Part shown: positions 4,529 to 58,350 of the stretch, piece by piece
How the letters are laid out: each line of letters starts with the position of its first letter
Position numbering within the stretch: the stretch's first letter is position 1
Made by a program: the position numbers and the translations under genes
NCBI RefSeq assembly: GCF_964355755.1
Contig: NC_092674.1
Span: 15,004,001-15,068,000, forward strand
Origin: Antedon mediterranea
Lineage: Eukaryota > Animalia > Echinodermata
Direction: 5' to 3'
DNA: 64,000 nt
The notes under the pieces: generated by a model
Database searches by the model: none
Seen by the model: the letters and a program-made list of their open reading frames with translations, nothing else
What the model was told of the DNA's origin: nothing

Positions 4529-6714
4529 TTGCTAATCAACTTTCAAATTGATTATCAATTATTCCTATTCAAAATTTTGCCATGAAAGTTTTCCCAGTCT
4601 ATATAAAAAATCTCCCCTATCTGTACCCATTATAATTTGAAAAATTAGTAAAGTAAAAATTCCACCTGTAATTCGAAAGCTTGGACGACCAAAGGTTGCA
4701 GATTTAAAAGTCATTGGATTACCTTCAAAGCACTCCAGGAAGAACGTTGTCAAGTGGAAAACCTGTGCCATTTAGAATAAAAGCAACTGAAAAAGAAGTA
4801 AGACATTTAGCAACTGACATGTGATAAAAGTATCAATATCATTATTCTATAATGTTGTTTTTCTTTTTCAAACAGTAGACAATATATACTAAAAAACCTC
4901 TTGCATTAATTGTAATTACCGTACACGTACATATGCACAAATATGATACTGTAGAGATTTTATATTATATATATCTTTAAAACATGTTGCTAATTAGTCT
5001 TATATGTATTTAAATGAACATATATTTTACAATCATGTAAGTTGTTGATATAGGTAATATGTAAGATAATATTAAGAATGAAACCCCAGCAGAATTTTTT
5101 TCTGAACTTAATAAATGTAATTTATGTACCAAAAATAGAAACCAAATTGTGACATAGAACTTATGTTTTCAGAGGTCACCAATGATAATATGTGTTTTTT
5201 GTGTGTATGCATTACGTGTTGCTCTATGAGATCGTTTTAGAGAATGTGAAAAAATAGCAATTATGTAATTTGATTTGAATGGTAAACATAGGCTTACGTT
5301 CATAACATGTCGTGTCAAGAAATGTTACGAACATCATATGGGGCTAGCTTGTGAGTAAACACAGGTTTATTCAATCAACGAATTATTTGTAATTTATATC
5401 TTATCTAACTAAAACATTGGCAAGTTTAATAATTTTGTATGGCTATTTATATCAGTTAAAAAAAACAATTCAAAACATGTTTACATGTGTTGTGTCAAGT
5501 CTGTTACGAATGTCATTTGGAAGACTGGACAGGCCTAAACCACATGTGCAGAGCGCTAGTCATCGCTGGTCGTTGATAAGGAAGCCCCAGCAGTACAACT
5601 AATATAAACAATAAAACGTCTGGATACAGGTCAAATGTCACTGCTACAGACGATAACACCTTTCGTTTTTTGCACGGTGTTACACACATCATAAACTTTA
5701 TTATCATTAAATATCCTATCACATTTGAACACAATCAAGGTATGTTTTCAAATATTATTGTAATATTAGTATCTATGGACACTAATAACCTTTGGTTTTT
5801 TACTTAATGGTAGAAATTTATGTTAAAATCGTAGTTTTTTACAGTTCCCTGGGTGTAAACAAACATTTTTTCAGCTGATACTTTGGGGTTAGCTGTTACA
5901 AACATCAATGTAAACATCTGCTTTTTTCCAAATAAAACACATCTTTCTAGTTGTTTTAACAATAAGAAATTTAATTTAAAATCATCATGTTGATTTTGTA
6001 TTTTAAATAATTATAATTTCCTGTGAAGTTGTATTATATTATGTAGTTCTGACTGTCAATTGATGCATTTTTGACGTTCGTAACTTTGACACAATTACCC
6101 TCACTGAATAATCGTGTCACCTGTTACGAACATAAAATTAAATTCATACATGCTGTCATGCCAATAACACGTATTCTAAAGTGTGTTGATCAACATAAAA
6201 TACAATTATAAGTCAATACATTTATTAAGTATTCTGCAATAAATGTATTATGTTTTGATAAGTGTTATTTTTCTATGTTTATATATAGATGTTGTTGATG
6301 TTCGTAAACTTCACAAAATTTTCGTCACCTATATGCTGGTGGACGTTCATGTCAGCTCTGTTACGTACATAATAGATTTTCTAAAATTAATGTTAAAAGT
6401 AGTGTGTGCTGACAATGATGCTATTATTTCATTATCTCAGTAATAAGATGTCTGTAACACTTGACACCATAATTATTAGCCATCAAATGCTACTTGTAAT
6501 AGACTAGGCCTAGGCTAGGTCTAGCCTAGTGTTCAAAGTTTTTGATAGCATTGCACTATTATTACTGTGGTTGATGTACTATTACTGTGGTTGATGTGCA
6601 AGTACTGATGACTTTCACAGTCACAGATTATTTATTAAAAAGATAATGTATATTTATGTCAGGAAATGTATAGTCATACCGTATATTTATTTAATTACTA
6701 TTTTTTAATACTCA

Positions 6715-22010: not shown

Positions 22011-22139
22011 CTATTAATTATTTTGCTGTTTTCGTTCCGTTCAAGACTTACGGTGTGTGTCTCCAGACGTTGTAATGACAAAATAGTATTATCCATTACC
22101 GTTGAAATATTTGCATCCTTCGTAATACTTTATCTTGGT

Positions 22140-22995: not shown

Positions 22996-23365
22996 TTTAT
23001 TTATTTATTTATTTCATTTCCCAACCAAGATTGAACTTATGGTTCACCACTTACAGGAGGGAACACAGACAAACACGTAGACATACAATAAAAAATATTA
23101 AACTAAACTACTAACAATGTTGCGAAACTTACGGAAATTATTACTAAAGGTATCTATCTAACTCATGGTTTCTTAAAGTAAAAGATTTATAAGTTTGACT
23201 TAATCTATTAATAAAACCATTTTTTAAAACATTTACTCTACAAACAGGAATATGAAACGTAGGATTTTTTCTAAGACGACGACTAGGGACTCTAAGATAA
23301 AAATTACTAACTAAGTTACAGTCAAATAAAGAATTAACACATTTATACAAAAAACAAGACCAAAT
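22996..23365 (-). mobile_element. CR1-type LINE 3' end
   Basis: ORF2 C-terminus YKCVN..F..PSRRLR..FHIP.CR.N..KN.FINR followed by a 3'UTR and an (AAAT)n tail at 22996-23014. Confidence 0.65.
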
Positions 23366-23440
23366 AAGGTTCTACTGGCTCAGGAGATTTGACATGGAAA
23401 TGAAAATCAGGATTCTGGTTGTGGCTGAATATGTAGCGTA

Positions 23441-24158
23441 AACAAGGCCATATAGATGGCTGTAGTCGCGTGCTCATTAGTGTTTACCGACCGACCGACC
23501 AACCTACCAACTGACCAAAATTACTGAACATGTTTAAAAATGTTTAAATGTTTAAAAACATTTATAATTTTTTAATTTACACGTGCGTAGCCTGTCACTT
23601 TTGATGTGCTCGTATAACATAATTTCGAGTTGAAAAGTGAGTCAAGAAAACAGAAATCGGGCAAAAAGAGTGCGCAATAACATTTAACGCGCAGTGCGCG
23701 CGCAAAAATCTGCGCACTCATGGCAATTTTGTAAACGCTTAAAATTGCCTGAAACGTACTCTTATTTCATCGAAAATAAATTTTGAAAATGTTATGCGCG
23801 CGTACGCATGCGTTACATGCGCTACGCACGTAATTGTATTGCCATATGATGATTTATGCCCTGAAATGTATGAGTACCAAATTTTATTTAATTGTGATTC
23901 ATGGTTGTGAAGATATGATTACAAACGTGATTTCGTTAAATCGTGCGTACACCGCGTAATTTTTTATTGCGCACCGTGAAAACGTAACCACATCGATTCC
24001 TGGCCATAAGGGAATATACTGTGAAAAATTGACTTAGCTAAATTAAACTGATATCAAGATAAGGTCAGAAAGCGATAAAACGCATAGTGATACCAGACCG
24101 ACCGACCGACCGACCGACCGACATAGTGAACTATAGAGTCACGTCCACGCGACTAAAA
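23441..24158 (-). mobile_element. HINE/DINE-1-like element, full length (~715 bp)
   Basis: subTIRs agtcgcgtg/cacgcgact, (GACC)n microsatellites near both ends, 3' hairpin gccatatagatggc, T-rich target. Confidence 0.85.
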
Positions 24159-24289
24159 ACGGTTATGCAGACGCTGAATGTGCGTAGACTGAGTTTTCGA
24201 AATAGAATTAAAAATAACAGAACTAAAGTTGAGAATTGGATGGATAATTGAAAAATAAAGGTGGATTTTGGTTTACCTGTCAAAATGTT

Positions 24290-24860
24290 TACAATTACGC
24301 CACATCAGCCCAAGCAGTCTATTGCACTTGCCAACAAGATAATCAATATGAAAAGAAAAACAAAGGAACTATCGATAAAAACACCAAAATCTTTTTTGCG
24401 ATTGCGCCCTATTAATGGGATTGTCATTAATTAAATAATTATGAAATAAAATGTTCTTTTTCAAAGTAATAGTTAAGATATTGCACTTTACTGGATTGAG
24501 GGATATACCCCATAAAGCTGCCCAAGAACATAATTTGTCTAAGTCCACTTGAAGCCTGTCAGCATCCTCAACACTAAACCAATAATTTTGTAACATCATC
24601 AGCAAACATAAGACATCTGGAGTGGGTAAAGAGTTTTTGGAATATAATTGACAAAAAGATTGAAAAGTAGAGGACCAAGAATCGATCCCTAATAAGGGAC
24701 ACCGGAATGAATAGGAAGCCATTTAGAGGATATACCCCCAATGACCACTCTATGGAACCTACCATTAAAGGCCAGGTGCGGGCAAAACATTTCTATTGAC
24801 CATACATTCCAATAATTAGAAAAAAAATTTATCGATCTATAGTTTCCCCTATGTTTCATA
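24290..24860 (-). pseudogene. CR1-type RT fragment
   Basis: SKWLPIHSGVP.GS.LGPLLF, LMFADD, LQVDLDKL.SWA..W...LNP.KC. Confidence 0.8.
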
Positions 24861-25141
24861 ATTTTTGGGATTTTGTTTGTTTTACACGAGCCTGTTGAAA
24901 ATAAGCACTTTCTTATCAGTGGGGGGATCCCCAATGTAAAAGATATTTTAAATAAAACAAATTTTATAGACAAATTTAATAAAAAAAACATCTACTAACT
25001 GGATAAAGCCATTACAAACAAATACTAAACAAGTTGATCATAACGGGTGGTTTCAAAGGCCCAATGCAAAACAACAACGTTAACAATATTATGTATAAAG
25101 GACTCCAACCTTGATAATATTTGTTAAATAAAACTGATTTT

Positions 25142-26413
25142 AAGAGCATCAATTTAAAGTTTAAAACAAGATCAAACATCATGAGGCTCGTAGACAATCC
25201 TGGTCAAAAAATAACACAGGATCATGTAAGATATGTATTACTAAGGAAAAGAAACAGTAAACCACTTTTTGTTTAAATGTCATTCATCAAACTCTGTTAT
25301 TGAAAATAATTTAAGTATATGTATAATTGGGATAATTTTAATTGTGGATCTCAAGAATTATAACACCACTATATGCTAGACAATTTATTCACTGCGAATG
25401 AACATTAGGAAAAATTTTGATTTTATTGTAAAAAATATTTAATGAACTAGATGGTTCCCGAATTCATCAGAGTAAAACAAAATGGCGATTTCAAATGTAT
25501 GTACCGCAGGACAATGTCATTTACAGGAACGATACATAGACACGGTGATTTATGTAGTCAACAGCATCCTGGAGATTACTTTCGAAAGAGAAAGTCACAA
25601 AATGAGTCAACATTTTTAGTCGCGTGGACGCGACTCTATAGTTCACTATGTCGGTCGGTCGGTCGGTCTGTCTGTCGGTCTGGTATCACTATGCGTTTTA
25701 TCGCTTTCTGACCTTATCTTGATATCAGTTTAATCTAGCTAAGTCAATTTTTCACAGTATATTCCTTATGACAATGTCATTTACAAGAGCATCAATTTAA
25801 AGTTTAAAACAAGATCAAACATCATGAGGCTCGTAGACAATCCTGGTCAAAAAATAACACAGGATCATGTAAGATATGTATTACTAAGGAAAAGAAACAG
25901 TAAACCACTTTTTGTTTAAATGTCATTCATCAAACTCTGTTATTGAAAATAATTTAAGTATATGTATAATTGGGATAATTTTAATTGTGGATCTCAAGAA
26001 TTATAACACCACTATATGCTAGACAATTTATTCACTGCGAATGAACATTAGGAAAAATTTTGATTTTATTGTAAAAAATATTTAATGAACTAGATGGTTC
26101 CCGAATTCATCAGAGTAAAACAAAATGGCGATTTCAAATGTATGTACCGCAGGACAATGTCATTTACAGGAACGATACATAGACACGGTGATTTATGTAG
26201 TCAACAGCATCCTGGAGATTACTTTCGAAAGAGAAAGTCACAAAATGAGTCAACATTTTTAGTCGCGTGGACGCGACTCTATAGTTCACTATGTCGGTCG
26301 GTCGGTCGGTCTGTCTGTCGGTCTGGTATCACTATGCGTTTTATCGCTTTCTGACCTTATCTTGATATCAGTTTAATCTAGCTAAGTCAATTTTTCACAG
26401 TATATTCCTTATG
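25142..26413 (+). repeat. near-identical 629-bp tandem duplication (period 643) with 14-bp filler
   Basis: 25142-25770 matches 25785-26413; identical ORFs called at 25451 and 26094; includes a Helitron end and a HINE 5' part. Confidence 0.9.
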
Positions 26414-26645
26414 GCCAGGAATCGATGTGGTTATGTTTTCACGGTGCGCAATAAAAAATTACGCGGTCTACGCACGATTTAACGAAATCACCATGAATCA
26501 CAATTAAATAAAATTTGGTACTCATAAATTTCCGGGCATAAATCATCATATGGCAATACAATTACGTGCGTAGCGCATGTAATGCATGCGTACGCGCGCT
26601 TAAAATTTTCAAAATTTATTTTCGATGAAATAAGAGTAGGCCTAC
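26258..26645 (+). mobile_element. HINE 5' half, interrupted by Academ
   Basis: colinear with ~31327-31730 until tagtctagtagg at 26646. Confidence 0.8.
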
Positions 26646-29600
26646 TAGTCTAGTAGGAAATGGGGGTTCCCATGCACCCCTAAGGTATGTTTTTTTAATG
26701 TGATTTTTTATAATCTCAAGTATGTCTAGTAACCAGATCAGGTTGTTAACATTTTCAAATCGTGTCCCATGGGGTTGTTTTGACCCATTTAGTCGGCCAT
26801 GTTGGTTTTAACAAATTAACATTTTTTCGCATTTCTCAGGAACCAAAGGTCGTAGAAATATAATTTTGGTACCAAAGTACTCAGTATATGTATGTTTGTA
26901 TATGCTGTAATGAAAGTTTTTTGTATACAATTACGGGAAGTATGATTTTTGACCTATGACCTTGCTTTTAAATGGTGTCCATATCTCAAAAACTGGTTGT
27001 CATAGAAACTTTATTTTAGTCTCAAATTATGCAGAATACCAACATTTATATTCATGGTAATGCAAAAGTTTGTCCGAAAATGATCGGAAATGATATTTTT
27101 GACCTTTGACATAATTTCATTTACATTTTTACACAATTTTGTCCATATTTGAGGGCATTAGGAGTTCTTGATAACTAACAGACATAGAAATATAATTTTT
27201 GTGTCAAAGTACTCGCGATATGCATTTTATATTCACACTAATGAAAGTTTTTTTGTGAAAAATGACCGGAAGTAGGACTTTTGACCTATGACCTCAACTT
27301 TAAATATTTTCATTTTCTCAAAAACCAGTTGTCATAGAAACTTGGTTTTAGTCTCAAATTTTTCAGAATACTAATATTTATATTTATGATATTTTTTTAT
27401 CTTTAACATACTCTTTTCTTTTTTGTCAGGAGAAATTCTGTCCGTATTTTGTTAGTATTATCAGTTCTCGATAACTAACAGACATAGAAAAAACATTTTT
27501 GTGCCGATCTTTGTTAGTAACAATACACTAGGATAAATTCGTTGTTTAGTTATCAACATTCCGACCTTTAACCCTATTGAATGATTTTGTAATGATATAC
27601 CTTATCATTTTTAATTTTGAGATTAATACATACATACATGTATTAATTAATCTTCATTCGAGAGGAGTTCTTCTAGGATGTGACCATCCTCATCTAACTC
27701 TTCCTCGTCCAGCTCCTCAGATGTTTTCTCAATCAGATCAATGAGAGAAGGAGGAAGGACAGCACTTTGTGACCAAATTGGCTCTAATATGTTGTCAGTT
27801 TTCTGCCAGCCTTGTCCTTGGTCATATGGTTTTGGACACCAATAAATCCCTTTATCTGCTCGCTTGAAGATAGCAAGGCGGTGATTGACTCTCTCAACAT
27901 GTGGGACAAGATTATCTCTGCATGGTGGAAGGCGCGAGAGATCCATCTTTGATTTTATAGTCAGTTGCTCATCCTCGCCTACCATTTTCTTGAGCATAAT
28001 GCTGCGTACAGTATTTATCGACTGTTCACGGGAATGACCATACATCAAACATGTAAATGCCTCGATATCATCCATAACTTTCGGACTTACGGACCAGTCA
28101 TCACCTAGTGTTCTGAAGAAAATCATTTTAAAATGAGGACAGAGTACCAAAAATAATAATAACAAAATGATTACTATTAACGCACGAAAGATCATTACCT
28201 GAAGGCAGTTTGGTACTTGGGGTAGTTCTGTAATTTTTTTAATGGTCCAACTTTACCCTTGCCCTTGAATGCACTAGTTACGTCTTCTCCAGTGAACACG
28301 TATAATCCCATTAATGTAGTGCATTTTTCAGCTCCCTGAATTCTTGCTAGTTCACTTACATTCACAATCTTGCGATGTTTACCAGTCCCTGTATCTAGAT
28401 AAATTACTATTGGGATTGACATAGCATGATGAAGTAGGATCATAAATATATATGTGTCAGGCGTCCTCACAACTGCCGATTTATACCCCTTATTGGCAGC
28501 ATATTTAAGGTACAACACAACTCTGGTGTCAGTCTCCTCTTGATGGAACACATCATTACCATCACCAGTAATGATTTGTGGAGTAAGGAATGTAGAAATT
28601 TCATCTACAGCTTTCACCAGTGCTGTTTCAAGTTCTAAGCTGAAGTCGTATGTCTCACAATGACCCAACCTATTCAGAATAGTTGTCAATTGCTTACTGC
28701 GATAGAGATGTCTAATTGTGGTACTAAGGAGTATGTGCTTCGGCAACTTCCACTCGCCTTTTGTCACAGCACGGCATATATCCTAAAATAAATCAATATA
28801 TATATATGACAATATATGCATCAATGTATTGTGTAATTTTAAATATGCGTCGTGTACAAATAACATACCAATAAACTGTCGCAGAAGGCTTTCAAAGAAC
28901 ATTCAGTTATGATAACTGTTACGTACTGTAAATTTGTAAGAATAAATTTAAATGTGTCATACCTGGCCAATAGAAAGCACAATACGTCTTGTCTTTTCAT
29001 TCATGTTCTGCATGTTTTCATCATTAGATATAAGTATACTCAAAAAGCTCAAAAGATTTGGTGGAAGAAGTTTATCGGCTGCGTTGATTTCTAAATCACT
29101 TGCTGTAGGTGGCCACGGAAATGGCTTCATTTCTTTAAAACCTTGTTGTACAGAATTTTGAAGTTGCATCGCCATATTTTCATACTGGTTTTTCAATCCC
29201 AGTTTAGGCCTATATGCATAACTCACTGCATTAGCGACAGACAGATTTTTGCTAAAAACAACATTATAAGTAATACACCCCTTATCACCTGGGTTAACAT
29301 TTGTAATAGTAATGCATTTGCTTATATGGTGGTTCTCTAACTGTGCCTTGAGTTTCTCACTTCTATACTCTGGATTAGGGAATCATTTTCTCTAACTCTT
29401 TGACATAGATATCACGAAGTGATGACAATAGCATGACTTCTTGCTGCCCAATTACATGTTCTTGAATAAAATAAATTACATACGTCAATGCATTTAAGCG
29501 GGCCTCACCTTTAAGACCATTATCATTATCCACATTCAACGACTGGATGTATTTTACATACTTTAGGTTGAATTTTTTTCTGCATGATTGGTGGAAATTG

Positions 29601-30709
29601 GCGTCACGGGCAAACAGGTCTTCACCTTGCACTAAGCAATGTAGGTCTGTAATAAATTACCATTCCCTAACATATAGAGTAACATAGTATTTACATGAAC
29701 ATTCTAGAATAAGATGGTTTGATTTAAGAAACCATGTATAATTAATAAGAACAATCAAGAACATTCCAGAAGTGCTATTAATAGAAACTGTAATCATGTA
29801 ATAATGAGAAGTATAAAGAATGATCTAGAAGGATAGGAGCATCTTGTATATAAAGGGATGTAAACTATTGTAAGGTTGTTGGATTAGAGGTTGGATATTA
29901 TATTGTAAAGTTATTGTGAAACTGTTGTTTAAAGTGCTTACTGGATTGTTGAAAGTTGAAGTTGATTGAAATTAAAGCTTTATTTTTGAGTTATTTTACA
30001 ACTTTGTGGATGTTGTGTGTATACTTTTATGTCACAAGGGAGTTCCTAAAGTATTTTCAACCGCTCGGAAACATACGTGAGAGGAGTTCGTGACATAATT
30101 TGGTGGCAGCGGTTATTTCGATCTACTGTTCGACTTAACTGTGTATTTATCTACGGTTGTGATATTTTGTGGTAGCAGTTTGATCTACTGTATTTTGCCA
30201 TAGATTGGTGGCTGTTTTAGGATCAACTGTACTTTTAAAACATACGTGAGAGGAGTTCGTGACAAGGTCATGCATTCCTAGTGCAAGTGACCGAGGCTCA
30301 ATTTGTTTCCATGTGGGATCTTTAAATACACCATTTTCAGTTTTATAAACAGGAAACTTGATGCACCTTTCAGTCTTTCTAGACACTTTCAATTCAAGTT
30401 TATTACAAAAAATACACTCTGGTGGAAACAAACTGTTCGTAGTTGATGGTTGTTTACGATTTGAGCGGGAATTTTGAGCTACACTAGATGTTGCACTACA
30501 TTTTAAACGATGTTGGTTAATAATAAAGCGTTGGTAGCAACCACGATGATAACCAATTACATTCAAATCAGTATTTTCGAGATTCTCTGGAATACCTTTA
30601 CAGACATCCTCCATACGATAACGAGAATCATAAGGTTCGGTAAGTCGTTTGTCACGAATACTATGTAGCTGATTCAACTTCTCTGAGGCTGATCCCTTGA
30701 TATCAGTGA
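26646..30709 (-). mobile_element. 5'-truncated, internally deleted Academ
   Basis: YHRGCYQRF, CIFC, GEDLFARDANFHQSC, PKHILL..RHLYRSKQL..LNRLGH, QEETDTR, TGEDVTSAFKGKGK, LPPC..GW; GT-AG introns at ~28783-28964 and ~28113-28198; DDE core missing between NDVFH and QEETDTR; subterminal repeats at 26700-27520. Confidence 0.85.
29648..30264 (+). mobile_element. internally deleted LTR retrotransposon (full 5' LTR, PBS, last ~27 bp of 3' LTR)
   Basis: 5-bp TSD AGGTC (29643-29647, 30265-30269); TG..CA LTR at 29648-30095; PBS TGGTGGCAGCGGT at 30101-30113, complementary to the tRNA-Leu 3' end; removal restores the Academ frame (MHDLHCLVQGEDL). Confidence 0.85.
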
Positions 30710-32036
30710 GCACCTGGCCTTTAATGGTAGGTTCCATAGAGTGGTCATTGGGGGTATATCCTCTAAATGGCTTCCTATTCATTCCGGTGTCCCTTATTAG
30801 GGATCAATTCTTGGTCCTCTACTTTTCAATCTTGTTGTCAATTATATTCCAAAAACTCTTTACCCACTCCAGATGTCTTATGTTTGCTGATGATGTTACA
30901 AAATTATTGGTTTAGTGTTGAGGATGCTGACAGGCTTCAAGTGGACTTAGACAAATTATGTTCTTGGGCAGCTTTATGGGGTATATCCCTCAATCCAGTA
31001 AAGTGCAATATCTTAACTATTACTTTGAAAAAGAACATTTTATTTCATAATTATTTAATTAATGACAATCCCATTAATAGGGCGCAATCGCAAAAAAGAT
31101 TTGGTATTTTTATCGATAGTTCCTTTGTTTTTCTTTTCATATTGATTATCTTGTTGGCAAGTGCAATAGACTGCTTGGGCTGATGTGGCGTAATTGTAAC
31201 ATTTTGACAGGTAAACCAAAATCCACCTTTATTTTTCAATTATCCATCCAATTCTCAACTTTAGTTCTGTTATTTTTATTCTATTACGAAAACTCAGTCT
31301 ACGCACATTCAGCGTCTGCATAACCGTTTTTAGTCGCGTGGACGCGACTCTATAGTTCACTATGTCGGTCGGTCGGTCGGTCGGTCGGTCTGGTATCACT
31401 ATGCGTTTTATCGCTTTCTGACCTTATCTTGATATCAGTTTAATTTAGCTAAGTCAATTTTTCACAGTATATTCCCTTATGGCCAGGAATCGATGTGGTT
31501 ACGTTTTCACGGTGCGCAATAAAAAATTACGCGGTGTACACACGATTTAACGAAATCACGTTTGTAATCATATCTTCACAACCATGAATCACAATTAAAT
31601 AAAATTTGGTACTCATACATTTCAGGGCATAAATCATCATATGGCAATACAATTACGTGCGTAGCGCATGTAACGCATGCGTACGCGCGCATAACATTTT
31701 CAACATTTATTTTCGATGAAATAAGAGTACGTTTCAGGCAATTTTAAGCGTTTACAAAATTGCCATGAGTGCGCAGATTTTTGCGCGCGCACTGCACGTT
31801 AAATGTTTTTGCGCACTCTTTTTGCCCGATTTCTGTTTTCTTGACTTATTTTTCAACTCGAAATTACGTTATACGAGCACGTCAAACGTGACAGGCTACG
31901 CACGTGTAAATTAAAAAAATATAAATGTTTTTGAACATTTCAACATTTTTAAACATGTAATTTCGGTCAGTTGGTAGGTTGGTCGGTCGGTAAACACTAA
32001 TGAGCACGCGACTGCAGCCATCTATATGGCCTTGTT
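30710..32036 (+). repeat. inverted duplicate of 23441-24779 (CR1 RT fragment + full HINE 31327-32036)
   Basis: near-identical reverse complement; paired ORFs 24369/30767 and 24574/30697. Confidence 0.9.
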
Positions 32037-35000
32037 TAGTCAAATTTAAAAAAAAAAACGATTTGTGTTTTGTATGTTGAAGGACGAGGGAAATGATGGG
32101 TGCAAAAAGGAACAATTTTAAATATATTCGTTATTCATTCAGTAAGAAAATATTAATTGTTTTCATGTTTTAAAAATAATATACCACTAAACACAGTAAA
32201 ATATTGCGATTTAAAACTTTGTTGAAACTGTGGCATTACTTTACAAAATGAGTCCAAATGTTTGAGTCAAATTTACACAAATAGTGTAGTCGATCAAAAT
32301 AGTAAGTACATGTAACGATACATCACTACGACGTTTATATTTTTTCGTAATTACAGTATAATTAATACAAACGTTGAGAAGCAGCTGTCTGTAATAAAGT
32401 TTATTTGTATAATTATAAACAGTTTGTGAAAAACACCTCTATTTAATTGTCAATAAATAATTATCTAACTCTTAATTAACTTAATTAGAGGCCTAATGAT
32501 TTTCAATTATTTCTTAGAGCCAATTTATACTTAAGTTGGTTCCTATCCACAAAGTTTTTTTGCGTTAGGGCACGTGATCCTTCGTACTGTAGGCCTATCC
32601 TAATTTGTTTGTATCTTAGAGCCCTGTCTTAGAACCAAGAGTTCACGGTACTTAGTTATTTACACGGGTAAGTATAGTTCCTACCCACCAAAGTTTGCTG
32701 TAACTGTGCTTAAGAAAGCAACTAACTCGGATAAGTAACTAATGCCTAAATTATGTGATACAGTGGTTTTGGTAAATCGTTTAACCTAAATTCGCTTTTA
32801 TCATTAATAAATAATTATCTAGGTCTAACTCAACTTAATTAGTAGGCCTGGTGGTTTTTAATTGCTGGTACAATTTAGTACGGAAAGTATTAACTCATTT
32901 TCTAAAGAATTGAGAAAAAGGTTACGCGCGATTTACTGAAATGTCCTTAACACTAACAGCTAGTGTATATCTCACCTCTGCAGTCACCGATTTTTTTAAT
33001 GGATGAAATTTCTGTTATGAGTGTACTTGCCTTTGTGTTATTACGCCTGAGGGAATAGACACTTGTGGAAGAAACACGATTGAAATGTTCCATTCTTCGC
33101 GAATCAATACTTTGTATAAACGTGTATTAAATCTATCAAAATTGTATTTTGTAAAGAAAATCGACTTTTCTTCACTGCATTATGATGCTGTAATCGAGCT
33201 GTTTAACCAATTTTCAAAATCAAAAACAATTATCGTAGGAGGATAGGTAAATGCGAAGCATTCTCGTATTATTTGTGCGGGTATCTTTCGGCATCGACAT
33301 CCGTTCGGAAAACATATCTTTTAAGATTTTAGGCCATTTCAAATTTCACCTCAGACACTGTCCGATTCCTCAGAACTCGTAAACCGTACATCCTAGAAAC
33401 ACGAAAATAATGGAAAATGATGCAGAAGTACTACTTTCTTTCATGTTTAATAAAAACATATGCATTTAACTCAATACTATAGGAGTTATTTTTAAAAATA
33501 GATCAGAACCTATTTCAAAATGGAAATAGATACATTAATATGATATTTTAAATAATAAATAAATAACTGTAATCCAACCCTCTCACAAAGATTTACTTAA
33601 AAGTATAATGGAGTCGCAGAAATCTAAAGGCCGTGCTCGGATTAGAAAATGACAAACCAATGCCATGGATACTGTTTACTTTAGTAAGGTTATTTGTAAA
33701 AGCTCCATCCTTATTAATTTTATCATAATCAAAATGTTTTATACTAACAGTATAACATGTTTTCCATGCAAACCATTCTAGATCACAATTTTAATTACAT
33801 TAAAATATAACGTTACATTATATTTTTTTGGGTAGCTGGTAGCTGGTAATACTCTAGACCATGGATAAGCAAAATCTGGACAAATGAATACATGACTTAA
33901 AAAAACACTGTACCGACCATGAGACACTCAGTATTATACTATTACCATCGACATATAGATCTGTTTCAAAAGGTGTGGGTAGGGGAAAAGATCGAGCAAA
34001 TTTCGGCAGGGAGTGAGATGGCTGCCAAGAGCTCTCCCCGGTGGAAGCCCGGCTACTTTAGCAATTGTAGGTTGTTTTAATTGATTTCCACATCAATATA
34101 GTCATGTCAAATAATTGATAGGAGGCTAAATAAATATAAACAATTTTGCACGTGACGTCCACAGTGTATCAGAAACTGATACGAACAAATAACTTTAGTT
34201 ACTTTGGAATTTCTGGTAAGTTACTGTGGGATTGATGGACTTGGTGGAAGGGACATTACTACCTCAGTCTCACCGTGGTTGGAACTTGGAAATATGAATT
34301 TTGTGAGTAGCCCGGCACTATTTAGTCACTAAAAATCTCTGTACCGGACTACCTACACAAGGTTTGAAGAGGAAGAATATAGACCTGGAAAATTCACTCA
34401 TTAAAGTTTGTGTTCACAGTACCCACACTCAATTTGCGATTCAAATTTCGACCAAAAATGCTGTCTTCAACATTATAATGCTGTACTCGAGCGGTTGAAC
34501 AGGTTTTCAGTTATTAAAAACAAATCGTAGGAGGAGATAGGTAAATGCGAAGCATCCTCGCATTATTGTGTGCGGATATTTTTCAAGATGGACATCCATT
34601 AGACAGTGTAGGCCTATACCACGACCGGAAAACACACCAATTTGGGGCAAATCGTTGAACCTAAATTCGTTTGAATTAATCAATAACTAATTATCTAACT
34701 CAATTTAATTAGAAACAGGGTTACATCAGGTGGTTAACATCAGTACCAAAAGTACGAACCAACTTTATACCATCGAATAAACATTCTAGAAGTAACACGC
34801 GATTTACCGAATTTTGCTCTTACGTAAATTTATATATAGAAGCATTGGTTACTAGATCTACAATATTATCAGCGTTACCTCTGTCGTCAACACGTAACTA
34901 ATAAATTAATAATAGAAAACAAGTACAACCGTCTTTATGAGGATGTATATGTAATCTGTAAATTTATTAGGCCCTATTATTATTTTTTAATGATATCCTG

Positions 35001-36310
35001 TTATTTTTTGGTTTATGATATATTTTTTTACTGTTTTTTTTGGTTTTGTTTTTTGGTTATATTGTACAGTTTAAATATTGTTATTTCCATACCATGATTT
35101 AATTAATTAGTTTATATTTTGTTTTTTTTATGTTACGTATAAGTATTTAAAACTTTCAGGCTAATGTTATTTGCAATTGTCTGTAAAACTACTTCCTAGT
35201 ACCTCATAGATTCACCATCATCATCTTATTATCCAATTGGCTTAAGTTTCTAATTTATGTTTCTAATTAATTGTCTCTTATTATAAACACCACTTTTGTT
35301 ATAGGCCTATAATGGTTTTTTTTTAAAATACATATTTTTAAAATAAAAGCCACGAGAGGGAGGCGCCGTGACGACGACGGGAAGTCGTTTTTGTATGTAA
35401 TGTTAATATAGTTACATACTATTAACAAAATCAATTTAATGTTTTAATGTTTTATTCACAATTACATTTACAACAACAAAATAACAACACCCAACACGCA
35501 ATACTAACACTAACAGTCCCCCTAGATATGAAAAATAAAACACAATGATAGGCCTATATTAAGTGATAATACGTAGGGCGTGTGTTCGAGGAAAATGGTA
35601 ATAGGCTATATCGATATGATATGAATAGATTTGCAACACATTTTATTCTTCTTCTCAACCAAATAGTTTTAATAAGCTAGTGGCGCTCCTATCCCGATCT
35701 TCAGACGATAGGTAGGCCTATAGAGTGTGCGCGGCGGAGAGAGGAAAATCAGACGGCCGAACGGATTGTCATCTTTCTTCGCATGCTGCTGTGTACTACT
35801 CTGTAGGCTACGTATGCAGAGAAGTAATATGTCATCGATTAGGCCTAATGTATTATTACTATTAATAACAATCGATTACGAGGAGGTAAGGCCAGATTTA
35901 AAGAAAGAAAGTAGGCTATAACGTATGTTATTAAGATGGATGGGTGATTGTAACAATATAAAAAATAATACTGGCTAGCTGCCTGTTGTAGGCCTATTTT
36001 CGGTGGCCGTACGCGTCCTCTCGACGGCATGCAGTAATTAAAAGAGAAGAGGAGAGAGAAGTTTCAAGCCCGTTTTCAACAACGTGCTTTTTGTATTCGC
36101 GGATCCTCCTATTCTTCGGCATTCATTTATAGCCTACACGAACGAAATAAATAATGGAATGGATGAAGAAAGAGATCACAAATAATAACATGATGTTTTT
36201 TTCCCTGAAATGTGTTAAAAAATGTTCTTCAAGCCTATATTTATTAGCCCATATTACAAATCAAAAGTTAAATACATTAGGCCTAGCCTAGGGGGCGGGG
36301 AGCGGAGGCC

Positions 36311-38452
36311 GAATACAGGTCAACCCGTACCCATGCCAACTCGTACCCACCAACTCGTACCCAAATTTTGGCTTACTCGTACCCAAAATTTTGGCTCACC
36401 CGTACCCATCATTGGCTAACCCGTACCCATCATTGGCTGGCCCGTACTCAAGTTTAATGCTATTTAAAGTATATTTATATAGGCCTATTACAGTTAAACC
36501 CAGTTTTATTACATATTTTTAGGTCATATGTTCGATATTATAATGGCAAAAACTATTTACCTAAGTATAATTTATGTACAGACTCGTACGAAAAAAGCAC
36601 AGCTTTCATCGTATTTGGGTCGTAGTTAAATTAATACTGGAGGGCGCTGTTTTACATGGAAGATGTCAGTGGTCGGCTGCTGTGCTGCATTCTATTTTTT
36701 TTCATTTATGAATAGTTATTGATCTATTATTTAAAATCATCTATCGTTGCCATGGAAAAACGAGTGTGGGTCATTTATTTGTAGAATATTATAGAATGCG
36801 TATTTTTTTTTAAAAGGGAATCCCTCGTCAGCAAAAACACGTAGCAGTTATTGAGGAAACATCTACCAAAAATGTTTAATTGCTGTAAACAAACAGATAA
36901 TTTTACTGAATTATTTAAGAAAAAAAAAATAGAAAACGATCGTACGCCAAATTGCGTTGTCTATTTTTTTTTTACACACTGTAGCTGTTATAGAAGAAAA
37001 TCTGCCAAAAATGTTTAATTGCCTTAAAGTACGTGTATATGATCATTTCACTGAATTATTAATAAATAAAATATATGGAAAACGATCATACGTCATTACT
37101 GAGTCGTCTCTTTGACGCCCTATAAATGCGTGTTTTTAGTAATAAAAGGTTAATCCCGGTCAGCAAAAACACGTAACACGAAATCTACGCCCCATAGCCC
37201 TGCAGGCCTTACAGTACGTGTATATGATCATTTCACTGAATTATTAATAAATAAAATATATGGAAAACGATCATACGCCATTAATCCCGGTCAGCAAAAA
37301 CACGTAACACGAAATCTACGCCCCATAGCCCTGCAGGCCTTACAGTACGTGTATATGATCATTTCACTCAATTATTAATAAATAAAATATATGGAAAACG
37401 ATCATATACGTCATTAATGAGTCATCTCTTTGACGCCCGATAAATGCGTGTTTTTTTATAATAAAATGTTAATCCCGGTCAGCAAAAACACGTAACACGA
37501 AATCTACGCCCATAGCCCTGCAGACTTTACAGTACGTGTACATGATCATTTCACTGAATTATTAATAAATAAAATATGGAAAACGATCATACGTCATTTT
37601 TTTTATAATAAAAGGTTAATCCCGGTCAGCAAAAACACGTAACACGAAATCTACGAGTAATTCGACCCCATAGCCCTGTGGGCTTTTTGATTAAAACAGT
37701 GCGTCGTTAATTTTACCAACCAATTTTAAATATACCAATACAATAGAAACAATAATTACTTGATCGAATCATGGAGGTATACCTCCATGATCGAATGTAA
37801 TCAGGGAAGATAAGGTGATAAGAATAAAAATTGATAAGTATAAAAATGATACGTTGTTGGTACTTTACCTGGGCTTAATTGAATTGTAATACTATACAAC
37901 AGTAAAAATATTTTTTTATTAATTAATGTTCTTACGTAAATAAATAAAAAGACACATCAAACATTACGTTTATAAAACTATAATACTACATTTAAATTAA
38001 TGTTAACAAATATATGCCTAATTAAACGAAGTTTACAATCAAATCAATGGTCATTTTTATTAGCACAAATTTCACCGAGACCTGTAAAATAAAAAAAAAC
38101 TATTTAAATATAAAAATATTCATACATTTGAAAGCATACCACTAGTTTTGCGCCGATCAAATCATTACAAGTAGGCCTAATTATTCAAATTGGGTACGAG
38201 TAGTCCAAATAATGGGTACGAGTAAGCCAAAAATGGGTACGAGTAAGCCAAATAATGGGTACGAGTAAGCCAAGTACTTTGGGTACGAGTAAGCCAAATA
38301 TTTAGGTACGAGTTGGCATGGGTACGAGTTGGTTTGGGTACGGGTTAGCCAAAGTGGGTACGAGTTGACCAATTATTTGGGTACGGGTTAGCCAAGTTGG
38401 GTACGAGTTGGCATGGGTACGGGTTGGTTTGGGTACGGGTTGACCAGCACCC
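36311..38452. mobile_element. non-autonomous Mutator-like foldback element
   Basis: 9-bp TSD GCGGAGGCC (36302-36310, 38453-38461); G..C termini; inverted arrays of acYcgtaccc at both ends; internal tandem repeats at ~37020-37680. Confidence 0.8.
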
Positions 38453-40890: not shown

Positions 40891-42438
40891 GGGGCCGTCC
40901 AAAAACTAATTTTCCGCGAGTTCCGCGATAACAAACCCTATTACTTACTCAACCATGAAAGTAAACGTCTCTTGCGGTAATGAGGCAAAATCATTCAAGC
41001 TTGATTTTCTCGCGGAACTCATGAATATTAATTAATATCGCGAGACTCGCGGAAGCCTTACAATATCGCGGAACTCGCGGCAGTATTGCCGATAATAGAG
41101 AATATAGTGCTCGTTTTTATTACTAACGCTTTGCATGCCAGCCAGGTATTAATATACGGTAATTGATTTTTACAGAACAAAAAATTATATTTCAATATTG
41201 TTTACAATTATTATATCCATTCGTGTGTCTGATCTTGTTTTTGTAATTAATAAATATATAGATAATACTATTAATAAATGAAATGTGAGTGCCCTTCCCG
41301 AGTTTTACCACAATAAAAACCACTGAAGTAGATAGAAAATAATGTCAAGAAGATTTGTTTGCACAACGACTCGGACGAGACGCAAACATCGCCTGACTTC
41401 GTTGCAAGGGGATTTCCCTTGCTTACAGAGGCCTCCTTTTGTGTCGCCACATTGCCACGCCGCTAGCCTGGTAAAAACAACTACCAAGGTAGGCCTAGAT
41501 TTATTATAAAATGCTTGCTTGTTAAACAATGATAGTCCCCTGTGTACAGTACAGAAAGAAAATAATAAATCACCATGTTTCAGATTATGACGCATTACAC
41601 GCGCTCCTAGCCTATCCTCCCAACGCCGATCCGCCGATCGAGAACACATGCAATTCAATTCATTGGGAAAACAATTCCATTTGACGCACACGCACCCTCT
41701 GATAAGAAATTTCACACGGCGCGTCGTGTACATACATCCTCTCCACGCACGAAAGATCTAGAAAGATCGTTGGAAAAACAATTCCTTTTGACGTACACGC
41801 ACCCTCTGATAAGAAAATACCATGTGCGTTCCTGCATGGTGCAGTCCATTATACGTCTAAAATTAGGGGTTTCCACTTTTAGTAACAAAGTTAAACACGC
41901 ACCTCAATCCGAAGATCGTTTGAAGTATATTATATTTATATTTTATCGCACCCACCTCAATAATCCAGCCGACAGATCATCGAAAAATCTTGTTTAACAA
42001 CGTCGTACACTAAATTAACGAACGCGTTTTTACCGACCTCAAAGAAATGGTATAGTCCACAATACATGTGCAGAATTAATTCTAAACTAACAGAGAGAGA
42101 AGGGTCGGCGTCCGTCCGTGTTTTGAATTTAAAAAAAAAAAGCTTTAGAAATCGAAACTCGGAAAATAACTATAATTTATATTCTACTACATAATGTCAT
42201 TGGCTTGAATTTTACCGTGGTTGAAACCCTGTGTATGAATAGTTGTAGGGCCTACAAACAAATTGTTTTTTGGTATCATTTTCTCCGTTCTATCAGAGTA
42301 GTTTAAGTAGGACTAGGCCTAGTACTAGCCTACTGTAGTCGTAGTCGGCCAACCTAGCTAGGCCTAAAACGTGCTATTCTGTACTATGATCTCATCTATT
42401 TATTAGGCTACCCGCGGAACTCGCGATATGTGGGCGGC
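40891..42438. mobile_element. non-autonomous TIR element (possibly PIF/Harbinger-type)
   Basis: tta|ggggccgtcc..ccgcgagttccgcg versus cgcggaactcgcg..gggcggc; motif repeated at 41010-41080; right terminus clipped, no TSD confirmed. Confidence 0.4.
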
Positions 42439-45034
42439 AACATTTTGATTGTTGTCCCGTCACTCGCATTCAGTGGGAAAGCCACTCGACAAATCGAACA
42501 AATTTTCATCTAAGAGAGGGCGCCCTATTTTTTCAAATTTGTTCAAAATACAGAAATTTGTAGGGTTCAGGAGAAAGGATATCATGTAAAATTACTATTA
42601 AAAATAAAAAAACTTGAAAATGGAATATATTTTCAAAGGATTAAATTATATGGTAACAATTTTTTATAGAATTTTCATCCATACAAAAATCTGAAATTTA
42701 AGGGACAATTCGTGTTTAATTTTTTTATTGAATTAGTGCCTTAAAAAACCACTTAATTAAAATATTTATCAAAAATGAACCACCTCGAATTTAAAATCCC
42801 TGTTGAACAAATTTATAAACTACATTTTGAAATATTGGGATTAAAAATCGAGTAGTTGGGACGCAAATCCGACTATTCAAACTAAAGTATGTTCATATTA
42901 CATCGCGCCGCCTAGCGGGTTCCTAGGCCAGGTTGTTTACTTTTTTCCGCGGTACCATCATGACATGTGTTGTATCGCCCGCAAGAACACAAAGCTATTC
43001 GGTAACCCGGCACCTACACCGCCGGGGAACCGAGGCTATCAGATAGCAGAAACAGTCAGTGAAATAAGAAAGAAAAAAACTCAATATTTATACTGATCAA
43101 GGCATGTAGCCAATATTTCGCTATTTATTACATTAGATCAGGTAAATACGTTGGGCCCTGGAAGTAAAACCTCCATGATGGACCATATATGATATATAGG
43201 CCTAGGCTAGGCCCTATACTATAGTAGTAGGCCTAGCTAGCTAGCCTATTAGGCTCCCAACACACACAGAAGCCTCTGCAGCTCGCCTACTCTTACTAAT
43301 AATAATAAAGGTCGTCACACAAAATAATTAGGCCTAGTCTAGCCCATGGAGTTACAGAATAAACAATTTTTTATACCTCCAACAAGATGTACTACTACTA
43401 GCCTAGAGAGTAGACTTAGATAGAGGCCTATTCTTCCAAGTTCTAACTAGGCCTACACGCACCTCACCTTGTCTGTTGTTGCACAAGAACAACATTTTTA
43501 ATATTTTAATAATAATAATATTCAGGTAACTCACTTTAAAGTTAAAAATTCTATATTCTATATCATTAAATACAAATTTATGGTAAAGCCTTGGTTGGCA
43601 TTTTAGGCCTATATATGTAATTATAGTGTAATTAATAACTTCAATGTTGCAATTAATAATTTAGCCTGTCTAAACAATCAACATTCATTTTCCACATTCA
43701 CAATTTTTGCTATGAATGAACACAAATTTTCTATTTAGAAAATTTGTAATTTCATTTTACACACTTGCTCCTTGTTACTGTTTTATTACTTCATTATTAC
43801 TGCATTATTTTAGAAAATGGTTTGTAGTGGTAAACAATCTTATTCTTATGACAAAACGCAATGAAGATATTATTAATTTCTGTTGTGACCTGTAGGTTTT
43901 GCTTCACATTCACTGCTGATATACTTCCATTCATTTCATGTAAACCTAAAAATTATCAAATAACTTGCTCAGCTTGCTTTAAAGTGTGATCTATCAATTC
44001 ATATAATCAGAGTCAACAAATAAGCATTTCATTCATAACTGTATATTCCAAGATCATGATATAAGCATTTCATTTATAACTGTATATTCCAAGATCATGA
44101 TACTGTGTAATTAAAGCACAATATTTTTATGATTGCATTATTCAATTCAAGTGATGCCACATAGTTCAGCTTTTTGAATCCGTGACCATGCATACATTTT
44201 TTTCTTTTCCTAAGCAGCCTTCATATCATACAACTCATTAAAATGGTGAAGATGAATAGTACACAGAGTATCTATGTCATAATGAATTGTTGCTTTTAAA
44301 ATTTTACTGATGCAAATTTATAACTTGGCTTCATGCAAATTTATAACTTGGGTTTCATCATTCTTGACATTTCGTACCATAGCAAATCTTGAAGATCTTT
44401 CATTTAGAAAATGCTAACCATACTATAACCATATTGCAGCAATGTAGACCTTGTAAATGTGAGAATGAATGACCACAAATTAAAAAAATTTATAATTTAT
44501 GTTCATTCATAGCACAATTTTTGAATGGGAAAAAGAGAAGCCGGCTGTTTAAAATGTAATTTATAAATATAATCTTAAAATAGTGTAGCACATATTTGTA
44601 CACAGAATAAAAACAATACATTTTTAATGTTTTAACTTTATAACACAACTTTTTCTTGCATCAACATACAACATTAATTATTCAACTATTACTATAAATT
44701 TAATACTTTTTTTAATGTTATTTGTTAATTCCATCCAATATTTTAAAAGTGCATACAGTATTTCTTATTTTTGTTTAAACTTGTGATACACAACATACAT
44801 TTAAATAGTATTTTAAGAGACCTATCTCAATTATAAATATGAGTCTCATAAAAACAAAAATCACATTGGTCAATAAAAAAATATTTAACATTACAAACAT
44901 TCATAAAAAAAAAATCCTCTTTTTCTTATTCAAAAGAGTTTTTTCCAGTTATTTTATAATATTTAATTTAATTATTTTATTTAATTTACATAGCATTTCT
45001 CAACTCAACAGTTGTATCTTTAAACAAATACAGT

Positions 45035-53939: not shown

Positions 53940-54425
53940 GCAGGCCAGCTAGGAATCTAGTTTAGGCCACTTTTAGTTAGTAGGGCCTTATTATAGCCAG
54001 GCCTAGGCTTACAGTCTGAGTAGCTAGTCAGGCTAGGCCATTATCCCTTTAATTATTGTACCTAACTAGGCCTATGCCCTACAAGGCTATAGTAGTATAG
54101 GGCCTACATACATAGCATATAATTATAGGCCTAGGCTAGGAGTCTGATCATCATTTATAGCCAGCCGTGTAAGTGAGATCATCGCAAATTAGACTTTCTG
54201 TCCTAAGCCTAGCCTAAATAAAAGCTAGGCCTAGCTAGGCTAGGCCCTAGCCTTTTATTTACCTAGTCTAGGCCTAGGCCCTGTCTAGCTACTACTAGTC
54301 TAGGCTAGGCCTAGCTGGATGTCCCCCTCTACTACCTAGCCTAGGCCCTAGTAGTAGGCTACTACACTAGATAGACAGGGCCTTTAGGCGCTAGCCTAGT
54401 AGGCTAGGCCTAGGCCAGGCCTATC
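53940..54425. repeat. TAGGCCTA/TAGGCTA/TAGCCTA low-complexity cluster
   Basis: dense irregular array of these motifs; similar clusters at 42310-42370, 43195-43455, 52590-52670 and 57339-57358. Confidence 0.85.
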
Positions 54426-54921: not shown

Positions 54922-57900
54922 ACTGTCACTCGCATTACCGTAAGAAATGAACTTAGTATTTACTAAACAAAGCAGATTTTAGAACGAAGAAAAGTAGACA
55001 ATAATTAATATTGCAACATTAAACCACTCAAAGGATGTTATATCAATATTCAAGTAAAAACTTTTATTTCAACTCATTTGGATGAAGTTCTAAAGGACAT
55101 CATCTATTTTTAACACTAACAGAACATCTTGTTTTTTTATAAACACAGTAACACTTATACGGTCACTAAAAATGAATTAGAAAATTCAAACAGCCATTTT
55201 ACAAATTATGGAACTCAAAGTGACCACGGTTGTTGACAACAACTGGTGCTTGAACCTTCTTTTTAAGATTTTCTTGTACATAATATATTGTATCTCTTGG
55301 AGTGGGCCATCTCCAGTATTTCCCGACTTGTTCCATAACGGACACTTGAAAATCATTTTGTTCCCCAATAGCAATAACTTCCCCAGGGTACAGCTTTCCG
55401 TCGTAATCAACTTGGTACCACTCACCAACATGCACTGTTAAATTATACTCCTTAACATGCCTACTTATGACAAAAGCAGACACATTACTTGAAGTTACAT
55501 CAAAACAATGCATTTTGGCAATTCCATGAATGGCACAGGCATGATCAAAAATGCTACATGTATTAAGAGAAGTATTTCTCTTATCAATTTCTTGTTGCGA
55601 AAAATGTTTCACAGAAACATTTTTCATACCAACAGCAGCAGAAACAAATGATTTGGCATCCGATACAATTGTCTTCTTGTTCGGACCTGACCCCAGACAA
55701 ATCGTTTCACTGATCCACCTATTCCATCTACAGGGCCTTTTCCGTGTGATGTTGCAAAATAATTCCACCGTAGGGTTACCTTGTGTTTCGCTTGCAGTGG
55801 TTGAATTGCAGCAACAATAAACCGGTTCTTGAACTGTGATGCTGGTCCATCAGACCAAAGTGAAACAAATGTTACTGTTTCTGGTAGTTGCTCTAGCACT
55901 TCATCAATGTACGAAACTACGGTTTCTTTAGAATGGACCAGATTATCAGACACTAAAACACGTGAATGGACTTCCTCCCCAAACCATTGGGCTATTGTGA
56001 ATAGGCTCACCTGTCTCTGGTTCCAGTGAGCACTCTGGATTTCGTCTTGGGAGACACACGTATAGTTCTCAGAAAAATCTATTTGGATTACAGCCTCAAG
56101 TGGGGAAGCTTTCATTCTATCATCTTTGTTTGTAGCTGCTTGCTGGCGCTTGACATAGCAATGCTCAATAAATTGTGGAATAAGACTGCAAAAATACTCT
56201 GTCAGCTCTTTAACTGTACCTTGCTCAATGACTTTTAGTATTCTTTTATCAGTATTAGACATTCTCCAAACATACCATGAACTTTCATTCTCACAAGCAT
56301 CTTCATCAAGAATTAACTGATATTTCTGCTTGAATCCTTCAGCATCTTTGCAAGATGAGCACTCATTTAACCAGCATTTTTCGGTTACTGTCTCACACAA
56401 CAAAGAAGCAGGAAAATCATGGGTATAGGATGGAAATGTTCGACACACCTTGTGCAGTGCATCAACTGCAAAGATGAAATTTTCGTGGTACCTGCAAAGG
56501 CATACATTGTGAGGCAGTTTATTTGTGAGATAAACATGCTTGGGTCGCATTTCTGCAAACTTGGATTTTCCAACTTTTATTTCCGGAAACTCGTTACAAA
56601 AGAGGGAAAATGTTTCCATTATAGAGCTTGTCAAATGACGGACTTGCATCTTGTTTTTTTTGCCATCGACTCCTTGAACTAAACAGTAATCTTTCATTCC
56701 TGGTGCCTGACGGCTGACATCATCCCGCACATAAAATGTTGTTATTATTTTAATAGTTTCTTCAGGTATTTCATTTGACCTCCGTCTTTTAGAACTGGTT
56801 GGTGTCTCATCGTGTAGCTCGTCGTTAAAAAGTATATGTCGCACACGCTTTCTTCTGCGAGGACTGGATGGCAAACCAGCATCAAGCATTCTTTTTGCCC
56901 TGGTAGTGGCTTTAGCAAAAGCCATAGCACTTCTAAAAGGTGATGGCCCATCTGATGCCAAAGCAGCCTTCTTTGCTCTGAACTTAGCCACACGTTTTCT
57001 ATTAGCAACTTTAAGAGCATCAATCTTCTGCTTCTTCAAAGCTGGTGGCAGAGCTAGAATTTTCTCTTTTCTTTTACTTTTACTTCTTTTCGAAATTTCA
57101 TTTTGTTTGTTTCTGTATGAGGTGTATTTTCCCTCGGCTTTCAGTTTTTCTAGGTACTTTCTCTGTCGTTCGGCCATTTCTAAAAGCAGGATGCAAATGT
57201 GAATGATATTTTAAAATTATTTTTAAATAATAAGCAATTATATATTTTGTTTTTAAAACTAAAATGCTTTAGACCTGGTGGTGTAAAATATGCCTAGTAA
57301 ATAATAATATATAAATAATAATATATAAATAAATTATTATAGCCTAGGCCTAGGCCTATGCGGTGTTTTCAAATTATAGAATTTGAAATAATTAACACTA
57401 ACAATATAAGAAAAAAAAACTTAAAAATTGTGATTAAATATAAATGTATACTTATTCTTACCTTCTTATCTTCACAAAAGATTGTACCAAATTTGATAAA
57501 TCTCACCAGATTTAGTGTTTTTTATTTAATGAGCTCTTACTGTATAATGATTGATTTTTCAAATGATTTAACTGCAAAAAGGTCGTTGCTAGGGATTGTG
57601 CTGCCCTCAACAAACCTAATGCTATAATTATTATACTGTACTGCCTCCAAATAAGGGCCAAATCACACATTGTATTATGAAATTAATGTATATACTAATT
57701 CTGGGACTAATTCATAACTAATGATAGATTAATTACTATTTTACTTTACAAAAAAAAGAGTTTTAGTAATGTCACTCGCATTACATTGTCCATTTTTGAA
57801 CGTCACTCGCATTACATGTCACTCGCATTTCACTTTTCAATGTCTCAACAATTTTGTATTTACGGGAATTTTTTATTTTTTTTGGTCAAATTTTAATTGT

Positions 57901-58350
57901 TCAAAGTAGTATAGCTAAATTATAAAATTTCATTAAAAAAAATTATCATCATGATGGTATAAAAAAAAAAATAATTTTTTTTGTCACTCGCATTACATAC
58001 CCTAATATATAACAGAATATACACAGCACTCCTATATGGGATATTCAAGATTTGTAGTTATATCATATTTTCCATACATCTTAAGTGTACTATACATGTT
58101 ACTTTATAAATATTGCTTTGGTGGGGAAATTAAGTTAAGTTAACGTAATTACCTATTTTTCACACCTAAAAAAAAAATATATATTCAACATTGAATAAAC
58201 GTAATTTTTTGGCTACAAAAAGTCATAAATGAATTGAAAAAGTTAAAAACCTAGTTCCCACATATTCAAAGAGTAACATAAACACAAATTTTGAGCTGAC
58301 TAATTAATTTGAATTTTTTTGGTCATGTCCATGTTTGCATGGAATTGCCC
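54922..58350 (-). mobile_element. Sola2-like transposon (plus 32-bp remnant at 42439-42470)
   Basis: terminus GGGCAATTCCATG (minus) at 58350; gtcactcgcatt subterminal repeats at 57771-57995, 54926 and 42459; other terminus lost. Confidence 0.75.
55199..57177 (-). pseudogene. Sola2-like DDD transposase, single frameshift
   Basis: VGKSKFAEMRPKHV..CLCRYHEN, DFSENY..QDEIQSAHW, WSDGPASQFKN, FATSHGKGPVDGIGG; frameshift at ~55680 into the ORF 55199..55768 with Tudor-like VGEWYQVDYDGKLYPGEV..WRWP. Confidence 0.85.

Follow-up and report, generated by a model that had tools for sequence, protein, structure and literature searches.

What has written the same eight letters, TAGGCCTA, dozens of times into a single stretch of the genome of Antedon mediterranea? 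The stretch, here called the window, comprises 64,000 bases of repeat-dense animal DNA with a GC content of 34.5% (contig NC_092674.1, positions 15,004,001 to 15,068,000). For one of its open reading frames the best homologue, 98% identical, is a protein assigned to this feather star. At every testable site the octamer is a derived six-letter insertion at a TA dinucleotide, with the TA repeated. It is likely to be the excision footprint of a TA-duplicating, cut-and-paste DNA transposon with ends predicted to begin with GG, the third base probably being C. This reading is based on the spectrum of enriched words and on the known chemistry of Tc1/mariner elements. The octamers and related words are called scars below; their tally is 89 in 64 kb, or about 1.4 per kb.

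Excess of the octamer and related words

Word expectations were computed from order-1 and order-2 Markov models, and a second estimate was made with the scars masked. The octamer occurs 50 times in the whole window, against 0.57 expected with scars masked and 0.5 (order-1) to 1.0 (order-2) without masking. It is the top-ranked 8-mer of the window under the order-2 model. Thus the original prediction, made from the letters of the window, was right in stating that the octamer occurs dozens of times where less than one copy is expected at about one-third GC. It also described the heptamers TAGGCTA and TAGCCTA as common, and indeed there are 13 and 18 copies of them, together 31 against 5.06 expected with scars masked. 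The near-equal numbers of the two orientations fit the expectation from resolving a central mismatch. The 9-mers TAGGCCCTA and TAGGGCCTA are found five and three times (8 together, against 0.21 expected with scars masked), and TAGCTA 18 times (11.2 expected, p 0.04). Neither of the two possible 10-mers occurs in the window. The feature had been placed at 26631-34620. The excess is real but extends over the whole window, this span holding 4 of the 50 octamers (26637, 29205, 32590, 34609), one TAGGTCTA (32820) and no heptamers.

Every enriched word has the form TA-G(m)C(n)-TA with m and n from 1 to 3, and the maximum is at G2C2; the forms G3C1, G1C3 and G3C3 have zero copies in the window. The words TAGGGCTA, TAGCCCTA and TAGGGCCCTA are likewise absent from the window, which weakly favours C as the third base of the ends. 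Beside the 50 perfect octamers there are 12 variants with one mismatch at an inner position (8.5 expected); this near-constancy of the inner bases points towards a templated origin. All one-mismatch variants taken together number 27 (14.9 expected). As these are few beside the perfect copies, the scars as a class may be fairly young, with a decay roughly put at a few per cent. The word TACATGTA occurs six times, against 3.0 expected in the window.

Direction of change at individual sites

Individual sites were followed in four contig sets (X3-X6) from one sample. These contain 0.77-0.87 of the words of a 9.9-kb stretch of the window, and the sample may be the window's own source. Two further sets, X1 and X2, come from two other organisms and share 0.07 and 0.06 of the words; they mainly cover repeats and therefore provide no outgroup for unique sites. 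Contigs can be haplotype mosaics. The summed depth of near-unique DNA in X3 is about 15. The sites considered here are as follows (strand is given in this and later lists only where one is assigned).

34609..34616, TAGGCCTA scar, a +6 private to a single copy of a very high-copy repeat; the best-supported site
38172..38179, TAGGCCTA scar in a repeat; the six letters are absent from contigs of the family
29205..29212, TAGGCCTA scar in frame in a decayed transposase-like open reading frame (ORF), adding two residues
32820..32827, TAGGTCTA, +6 at TA; the other copies, near 4375, 32461 and 34690, are empty (3/4)
26637..26644, TAGGCCTA at the cut-off point of a repeat copy, adjoining an element that starts with TAG; similarity to 31327-31729 ends at 26638
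32590..32597, TAGGCCTA whose first TA is common to TACTGTA; no empty copy was seen

The original prediction cited three pairs of paralogous sequences differing by exactly six letters at a TA, two of which are borne out. In the first (4296 against 34604) a clean six-letter gap lies within an alignment of 385 columns with 89% identity, the paralogue at 4296 being the one without the six letters. The host repeat of this scar has a summed depth of about 100,000 in X3, against about 15 for near-unique DNA. Loose ends behind 34610 continue as the empty site in 13 contigs of X3, 39 of X4, 17 of X5 and 26 of X6, and loose ends before 34615 do so in eight contigs each of X5 and X6; one X5 contig (depth 216/649) carries a different variant. 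The third pair (4375 and 34690 against 32814) shows the +6 with the one-letter variant GGTC, and the copy near 32461 is also empty. The TAGGTCTA at 32820 is presumably a scar with one changed letter. The second pair (31723 against 26632) did not stand: similarity stops at the TA at 26638, with one matching letter rightward, and the continuation of the paralogue is found at 31731 and 23738 only, so this is a junction at which a repeat is truncated. A possible fifth pair (3601 against about 32172), with a difference of eight letters in a 67% alignment, was set aside.

Two further sites add to the evidence. The six letters at 38172 are absent at a depth of 465/996 in X3, 20,881/51,274 in X4 (five contigs) and 32.4/32.4 in X1, another organism; these figures are from 12 of 288 indel rows and give only the depth without the six letters. 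At 29205, the two additional residues are absent in all 25 homologues aligned across the site. These belong to a set of 29 homologues from other organisms, of which three stop short of the site and one is unaligned there; the gap is offset by one in 2 of the 25. Since the long allele is derived in three independent direction tests, the possibility that the short alleles are deletions, named by the original prediction as a refutation, fails where direction was tested. The repeated dinucleotide is TA at 4/4 resolved sites (34609, 38172, 29205 and 32820).

Clusters, chains and insertion context

The scars are unevenly distributed, the variance/mean ratio per kb being 5.3. The main clusters and chains are listed below.

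35302..36290, cluster of 6 octamers with 5 heptamers, in near-unique DNA
42246..43611, cluster of chained scars having TA dinucleotides in common
53963..54423, cluster of the highest density; the kilobase starting at 54001 holds 14 octamers and heptamers, several of them chained
6500..6528, chain of unlike units with one TA between neighbours
57340..57358, chain of one heptamer and two octamers

A TA is shared with another scar in 22 of the 89 cases, against about 3% at random, and 60 scars are isolated. The chains mix different units, which is unlike slippage. At the half-sites of the 60 isolated scars, the TA is preceded by C or followed by G more often than expected (32/120 against 16%, p 0.002), and preceded by T or followed by A less often (21/120 against 33%, p 1e-4). 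Scar density correlates weakly with CpG-rich kilobases (rho 0.36, p 0.004), while a local CpG test is not significant (p 0.15). Only 1 of the 89 scars falls into ORF-like stretches, against 18.6 expected; this scarcity was excluded as evidence, since choosing long open frames already favours stretches free of insertions. Both arms of the inverted repeat 52692-53946 carry TAGGCCTA (52848/53783 and 53007/53643), and therefore some copies were inherited with repeats and are not new events.

Three side observations may be added. An X4 contig over 34812-34999 is six letters longer than the window, as judged from record lengths, and could contain a heterozygous scar. At 35719, the other allele has a five-letter insertion of A and T only, immediately after the scar at 35713, in 3/4 runs. 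The inverted repeat 52692-53946 is a high-copy one with arms of about 400 bp, its flanks form the densest scar cluster, and at a TA that is empty in the window copy, one paralogous contig bears a scar-like insert.

Probable excision by a TA-targeting transposase

Tc1/mariner transposases insert with duplication of TA and excise by cuts placed a few bases within the element, after which end joining leaves as a footprint its first or last 2-4 bases (PMC7827188, PMC6943129); statements on published systems refer, here and below, to the portions of each source covered by our literature search. A core that is fixed and self-complementary, with a TA on either side, would be expected from this. The scars have such features, namely a short insertion flanked by a duplicated TA, a derived long allele, and a fixed core of 2-4 bases in complementary forms. 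That TAGGCCTA behaves like a Tc1/mariner footprint is well supported. The closest parallel is Sleeping Beauty, whose footprints TACAGTA and TACTGTA also have flanking TAs, a short fixed core and two complementary 7-mers, and arise from three-nucleotide 3' overhangs by end joining (PMC6943129, PMC7827188). It differs in that the core here is GGC/GCC rather than CAG/CTG, that the 8-mer dominates, and that a standing genomic excess of about 1.4 scars per kb is compared with products of assays (PMC6943129, PMC7827188). The C. elegans Tc1 footprint TACATGTA is a palindrome of TA, two bases, two bases and TA, the geometry of TAGGCCTA; its core, however, is CATG, and it is described as rare (PMC3520976, citing earlier work).

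The mechanism would be as follows. The element would insert at TA and duplicate it. On excision in the germ line, the cuts made by its transposase would fall a few bases in from each end, so that the flanks of the donor site would keep short 3' overhangs, which end joining would then fix. If the overhangs were GGC, full overlap would yield TAGGCTA or TAGCCTA, pairing through the last two bases TAGGCCTA, and an overlap of one base the 9-mers. If they were GG, joined end to end as in Tc1 TACATGTA, the octamer would be the direct product and the other words would come from cuts one base off. Repeat visits to one TA or region would produce chains and clusters, and some scars would later be copied inside other repeats.

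The original prediction had favoured the former geometry. Its derived TA insertion and its family of end-like words stand, but a two-nucleotide GG overhang fits the word counts about as well as a three-nucleotide GGC one. Within the footprint reading we lean slightly towards GGC, since few zero-overlap products of the CAG type are present here, and regard GG as the somewhat less probable form.

If the scars are footprints, they are a natural, datable record, at about 1.4 per kb, of germ-line excision and repair, which are usually measured only in assays. The 8-mer commonest over expectation is in any case a product of mutation, and motif searches in such genomes would misreport it as a regulatory site. 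The footprint reading also predicts an abundant, searchable element with ends TA|GG.

Search for the parent element

It is here that the points weighing against an excision origin are found. No convincing TA|GG...CC|TA element was observed in the 64-kb window by a scan for terminal inverted repeats (TIRs) covering all TA|GG and CC|TA sites. The scan returned segments from within paralogous repeats, scars paired by chance, and a single 26-bp pair (9634-9723), the only one not accounted for by paralogous copies or scars. Its arms are the inner arms of a palindromic element (9546-9817); a TA precedes each of them, and they start with GG. With T as the third base, the pair predicts 9-mers that occur 0 times. 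Apart from this weak candidate, the original prediction is right that the window contains no identifiable parent. Nor was a filled allele seen among the loose ends examined (24 of 2,863 and 24 of 584).

Nor do the contigs show current activity, 0/10 scars in 35490-36310 being heterozygous. The X5 contig over this interval (record 24) differs from the window by nine letters and six indels and keeps all ten scars; all its 29 gap letters are explained by listed non-scar indels (12 of 21 indel rows).

The 7-mer is canonical in the TA-targeting systems tested in the literature covered, whereas the 8-mer dominates here. The Sleeping Beauty-type words TACAGTA and TACTGTA are themselves 2.7-fold in excess (38 against 14.3 expected), which speaks for the footprint reading and may reflect a second scar class. 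On the opposite side, they are known here as word counts, and their positions do not follow those of the GG scars (rho -0.13; TA shared in 4 of 38 against 2.1 expected).

One resident element called for separate consideration.

55199..58350, minus strand, transposase-like element with a GGG end, rejected as parent

It is presumably Sola2-like. Its transposase (55199-57210) has 414 homologues, of which the best 120 were taken and 24 aligned; relatives were retrieved from 80 metagenome loci, 50 being used in the TIR scan and all 80 in a scan for the end pattern. The end is conserved in the family, and TA flanks are seen in 8/67 raw end-pattern hits in the 80 loci. The clearest complete copy, relative L002, shows a duplication of 4 bp, and AG, rather than TA, follows the true end at 58350 in the window. 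These observations count against this element as the parent, and the 4-bp duplication also against the footprint reading.

The inverted repeat 52692-53946 was rejected as well, having GG-rich ends without TA flanks. None of the 16 window ORFs matches the DDE_1 domain of Pfam; no transposase-like ORF among them scored above the Pfam cut-off, which only a reverse transcriptase fragment passed.

Described families fit in part. ISL2EU elements are from animals, usually have TIRs starting with GG, and duplicate 2 bp (PMC4482050). They were rejected because the duplicated dinucleotide is AT within A|AT|T, whereas TA is repeated at the four resolved sites (PMC4482050). Among the rows of the pogo table examined, the Fot and Fot-like group is the only one with TIRs starting with GG (PMC7386202). 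Some Fot-like elements duplicate TA, 50 according to the text; among GG-ended rows there is one with TA, from an amoeba (PMC7386202). The GG-ended rows otherwise come from fungi, red algae and oomycetes, and the duplications are mostly TAA or TAAA; the sole Fot row starting with GGC is fungal with a TAA duplication (PMC7386202). No transposase of this group was seen in the window. A further point against the footprint reading is that no animal with a GG-starting TIR appears among the rows examined (56 of 99 places with 'GGG' and 5/5 with 'GGC'; PMC7386202). Sailor elements start with GT or CC and have TATA duplications (PMC8533490). The portions covered of PMC10379824, PMC9179366 and PMC4455052 give no useful end sequences. 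No description of TAGGCCTA as a scar was found in the titles and abstracts searched, Repbase Reports and subscription journals being outside the search. TIR logos in figures and supplements beyond the literature search could name a TA|GGC family.

Alternative explanations

It is doubtful, though worth considering, that the scars were made without any resident transposon, or by transposons belonging to none of the described superfamilies. If so, a conserved germ-line process cutting TA and writing GG on both ends would be a major unrecognised mutational signature of non-coding DNA in several animal phyla.

One specific form of this is a nuclease, either a non-integrating transposase or a host enzyme, making a break at TA with a two-nucleotide stagger; fill-in would repeat the TA, a repair polymerase would extend each end by one to three G, and joining would follow. 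All enriched words fit TA-G(m)C(n)-TA, no parent was found in the window, and the GGG-ended family tested was rejected, all of which such a process would accommodate. Untemplated polymerases are imprecise, however, and should mix bases, while the inner variants of the octamer barely exceed chance (12 against 8.5). The absence of G3C1, G1C3 and G3C3 is also at odds with free addition. We consider this route unlikely.

The palindrome could be a selected binding site of a dimeric DNA-binding protein. It is perfect, clustered and weakly linked to CpG-rich kilobases, and there are precedents of a kind: in Phytophthora a word of similar form, TACATGTA, has been interpreted as a binding site (PMC3520976), and the heptamers are present in a 1997 trout note on regulatory motifs (PMC2275977). 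However, the word arises in one +6 step in single repeat copies and inside a dead ORF, the local CpG test is not significant, and selection leaves the origin of the word unexplained. It is thus very improbable that binding accounts for the scars, while later co-option of some of them may occur.

Still less can be said for telomerase adding GG(G) to both TA-ended halves of a break, followed by head-to-head fusion. The telomeric repeat is TTAGGG, with TAGG at its beginning, and templating would account for the fidelity of the core. Yet TAGGGCCCTA is absent and TAGGGTTA occurs only three times, and the depletion of T before TA at isolated scars is the opposite of TTA priming, which makes this origin barely credible. 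Finally, that a few word-carrying repeats or slippage of a TAGGCC unit inflated the count has hardly any probability and is already largely refuted for the window: two site pairs do lie in both arms of one inverted repeat and there is one homogeneous dimer (57345-57358), but the flanks of the remaining 46 octamers are unrelated in the listed contexts, most scars are isolated, and the chains mix unlike units.

Neighbouring repeats and elements

The scar at 29205 lies within the following element.

26646..29656, minus strand, decayed transposase-like element hosting the 29205 scar, recognised from ORF pieces and homologues

We take this element to be Academ-like. It is weakly related to the ORF 47324-50560, part of a nearly intact transposase-like gene (47324-52461) with three long ORFs (1078, 303 and 345 amino acids) that is CpG-poor and scar-free and has weak Pfam matches to DUF6589 and TCR, below the cut-off. 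Other transposase-like ORFs (322 and 427 amino acids), without a Pfam match, are found at 12838-15344 between inverted 88-bp segments at 10706 and 16670.

Several repeats carry or adjoin scars. The scars at 36480 and 38172 lie in the repeat 36318-38445, which contains numerous subterminal ACTCGTACCCA units; CAG appears to stand on either side of its inverted ends, as in the CWG duplication reported for NuwaI (PMC4482050). A very high-copy repeat with a tail of the TATATAGA type is represented by 4063-4528, 32771-33305 and 34461-34840. This repeat presumably resembles Helentron-associated elements. Several copies of a repeat with a GGTC microsatellite lie in 22138-26638 and 30710-32040, including a 1.3-kb inverted pair with 97.7% identity. 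An exact 629-bp direct duplication (25142-25770 = 25785-26413) is possibly very recent or an assembly artefact.

At 42471 and 54916, opposite ends of one element type adjoin CATT beside a subterminal unit of the 55199-58350 family, which suggests that this type targets that unit with a 4-bp duplication. The segment 38818-38932, in a high-copy stretch, matches 5S rRNA with 73 bits; a 5S-derived repeat may have its head here.

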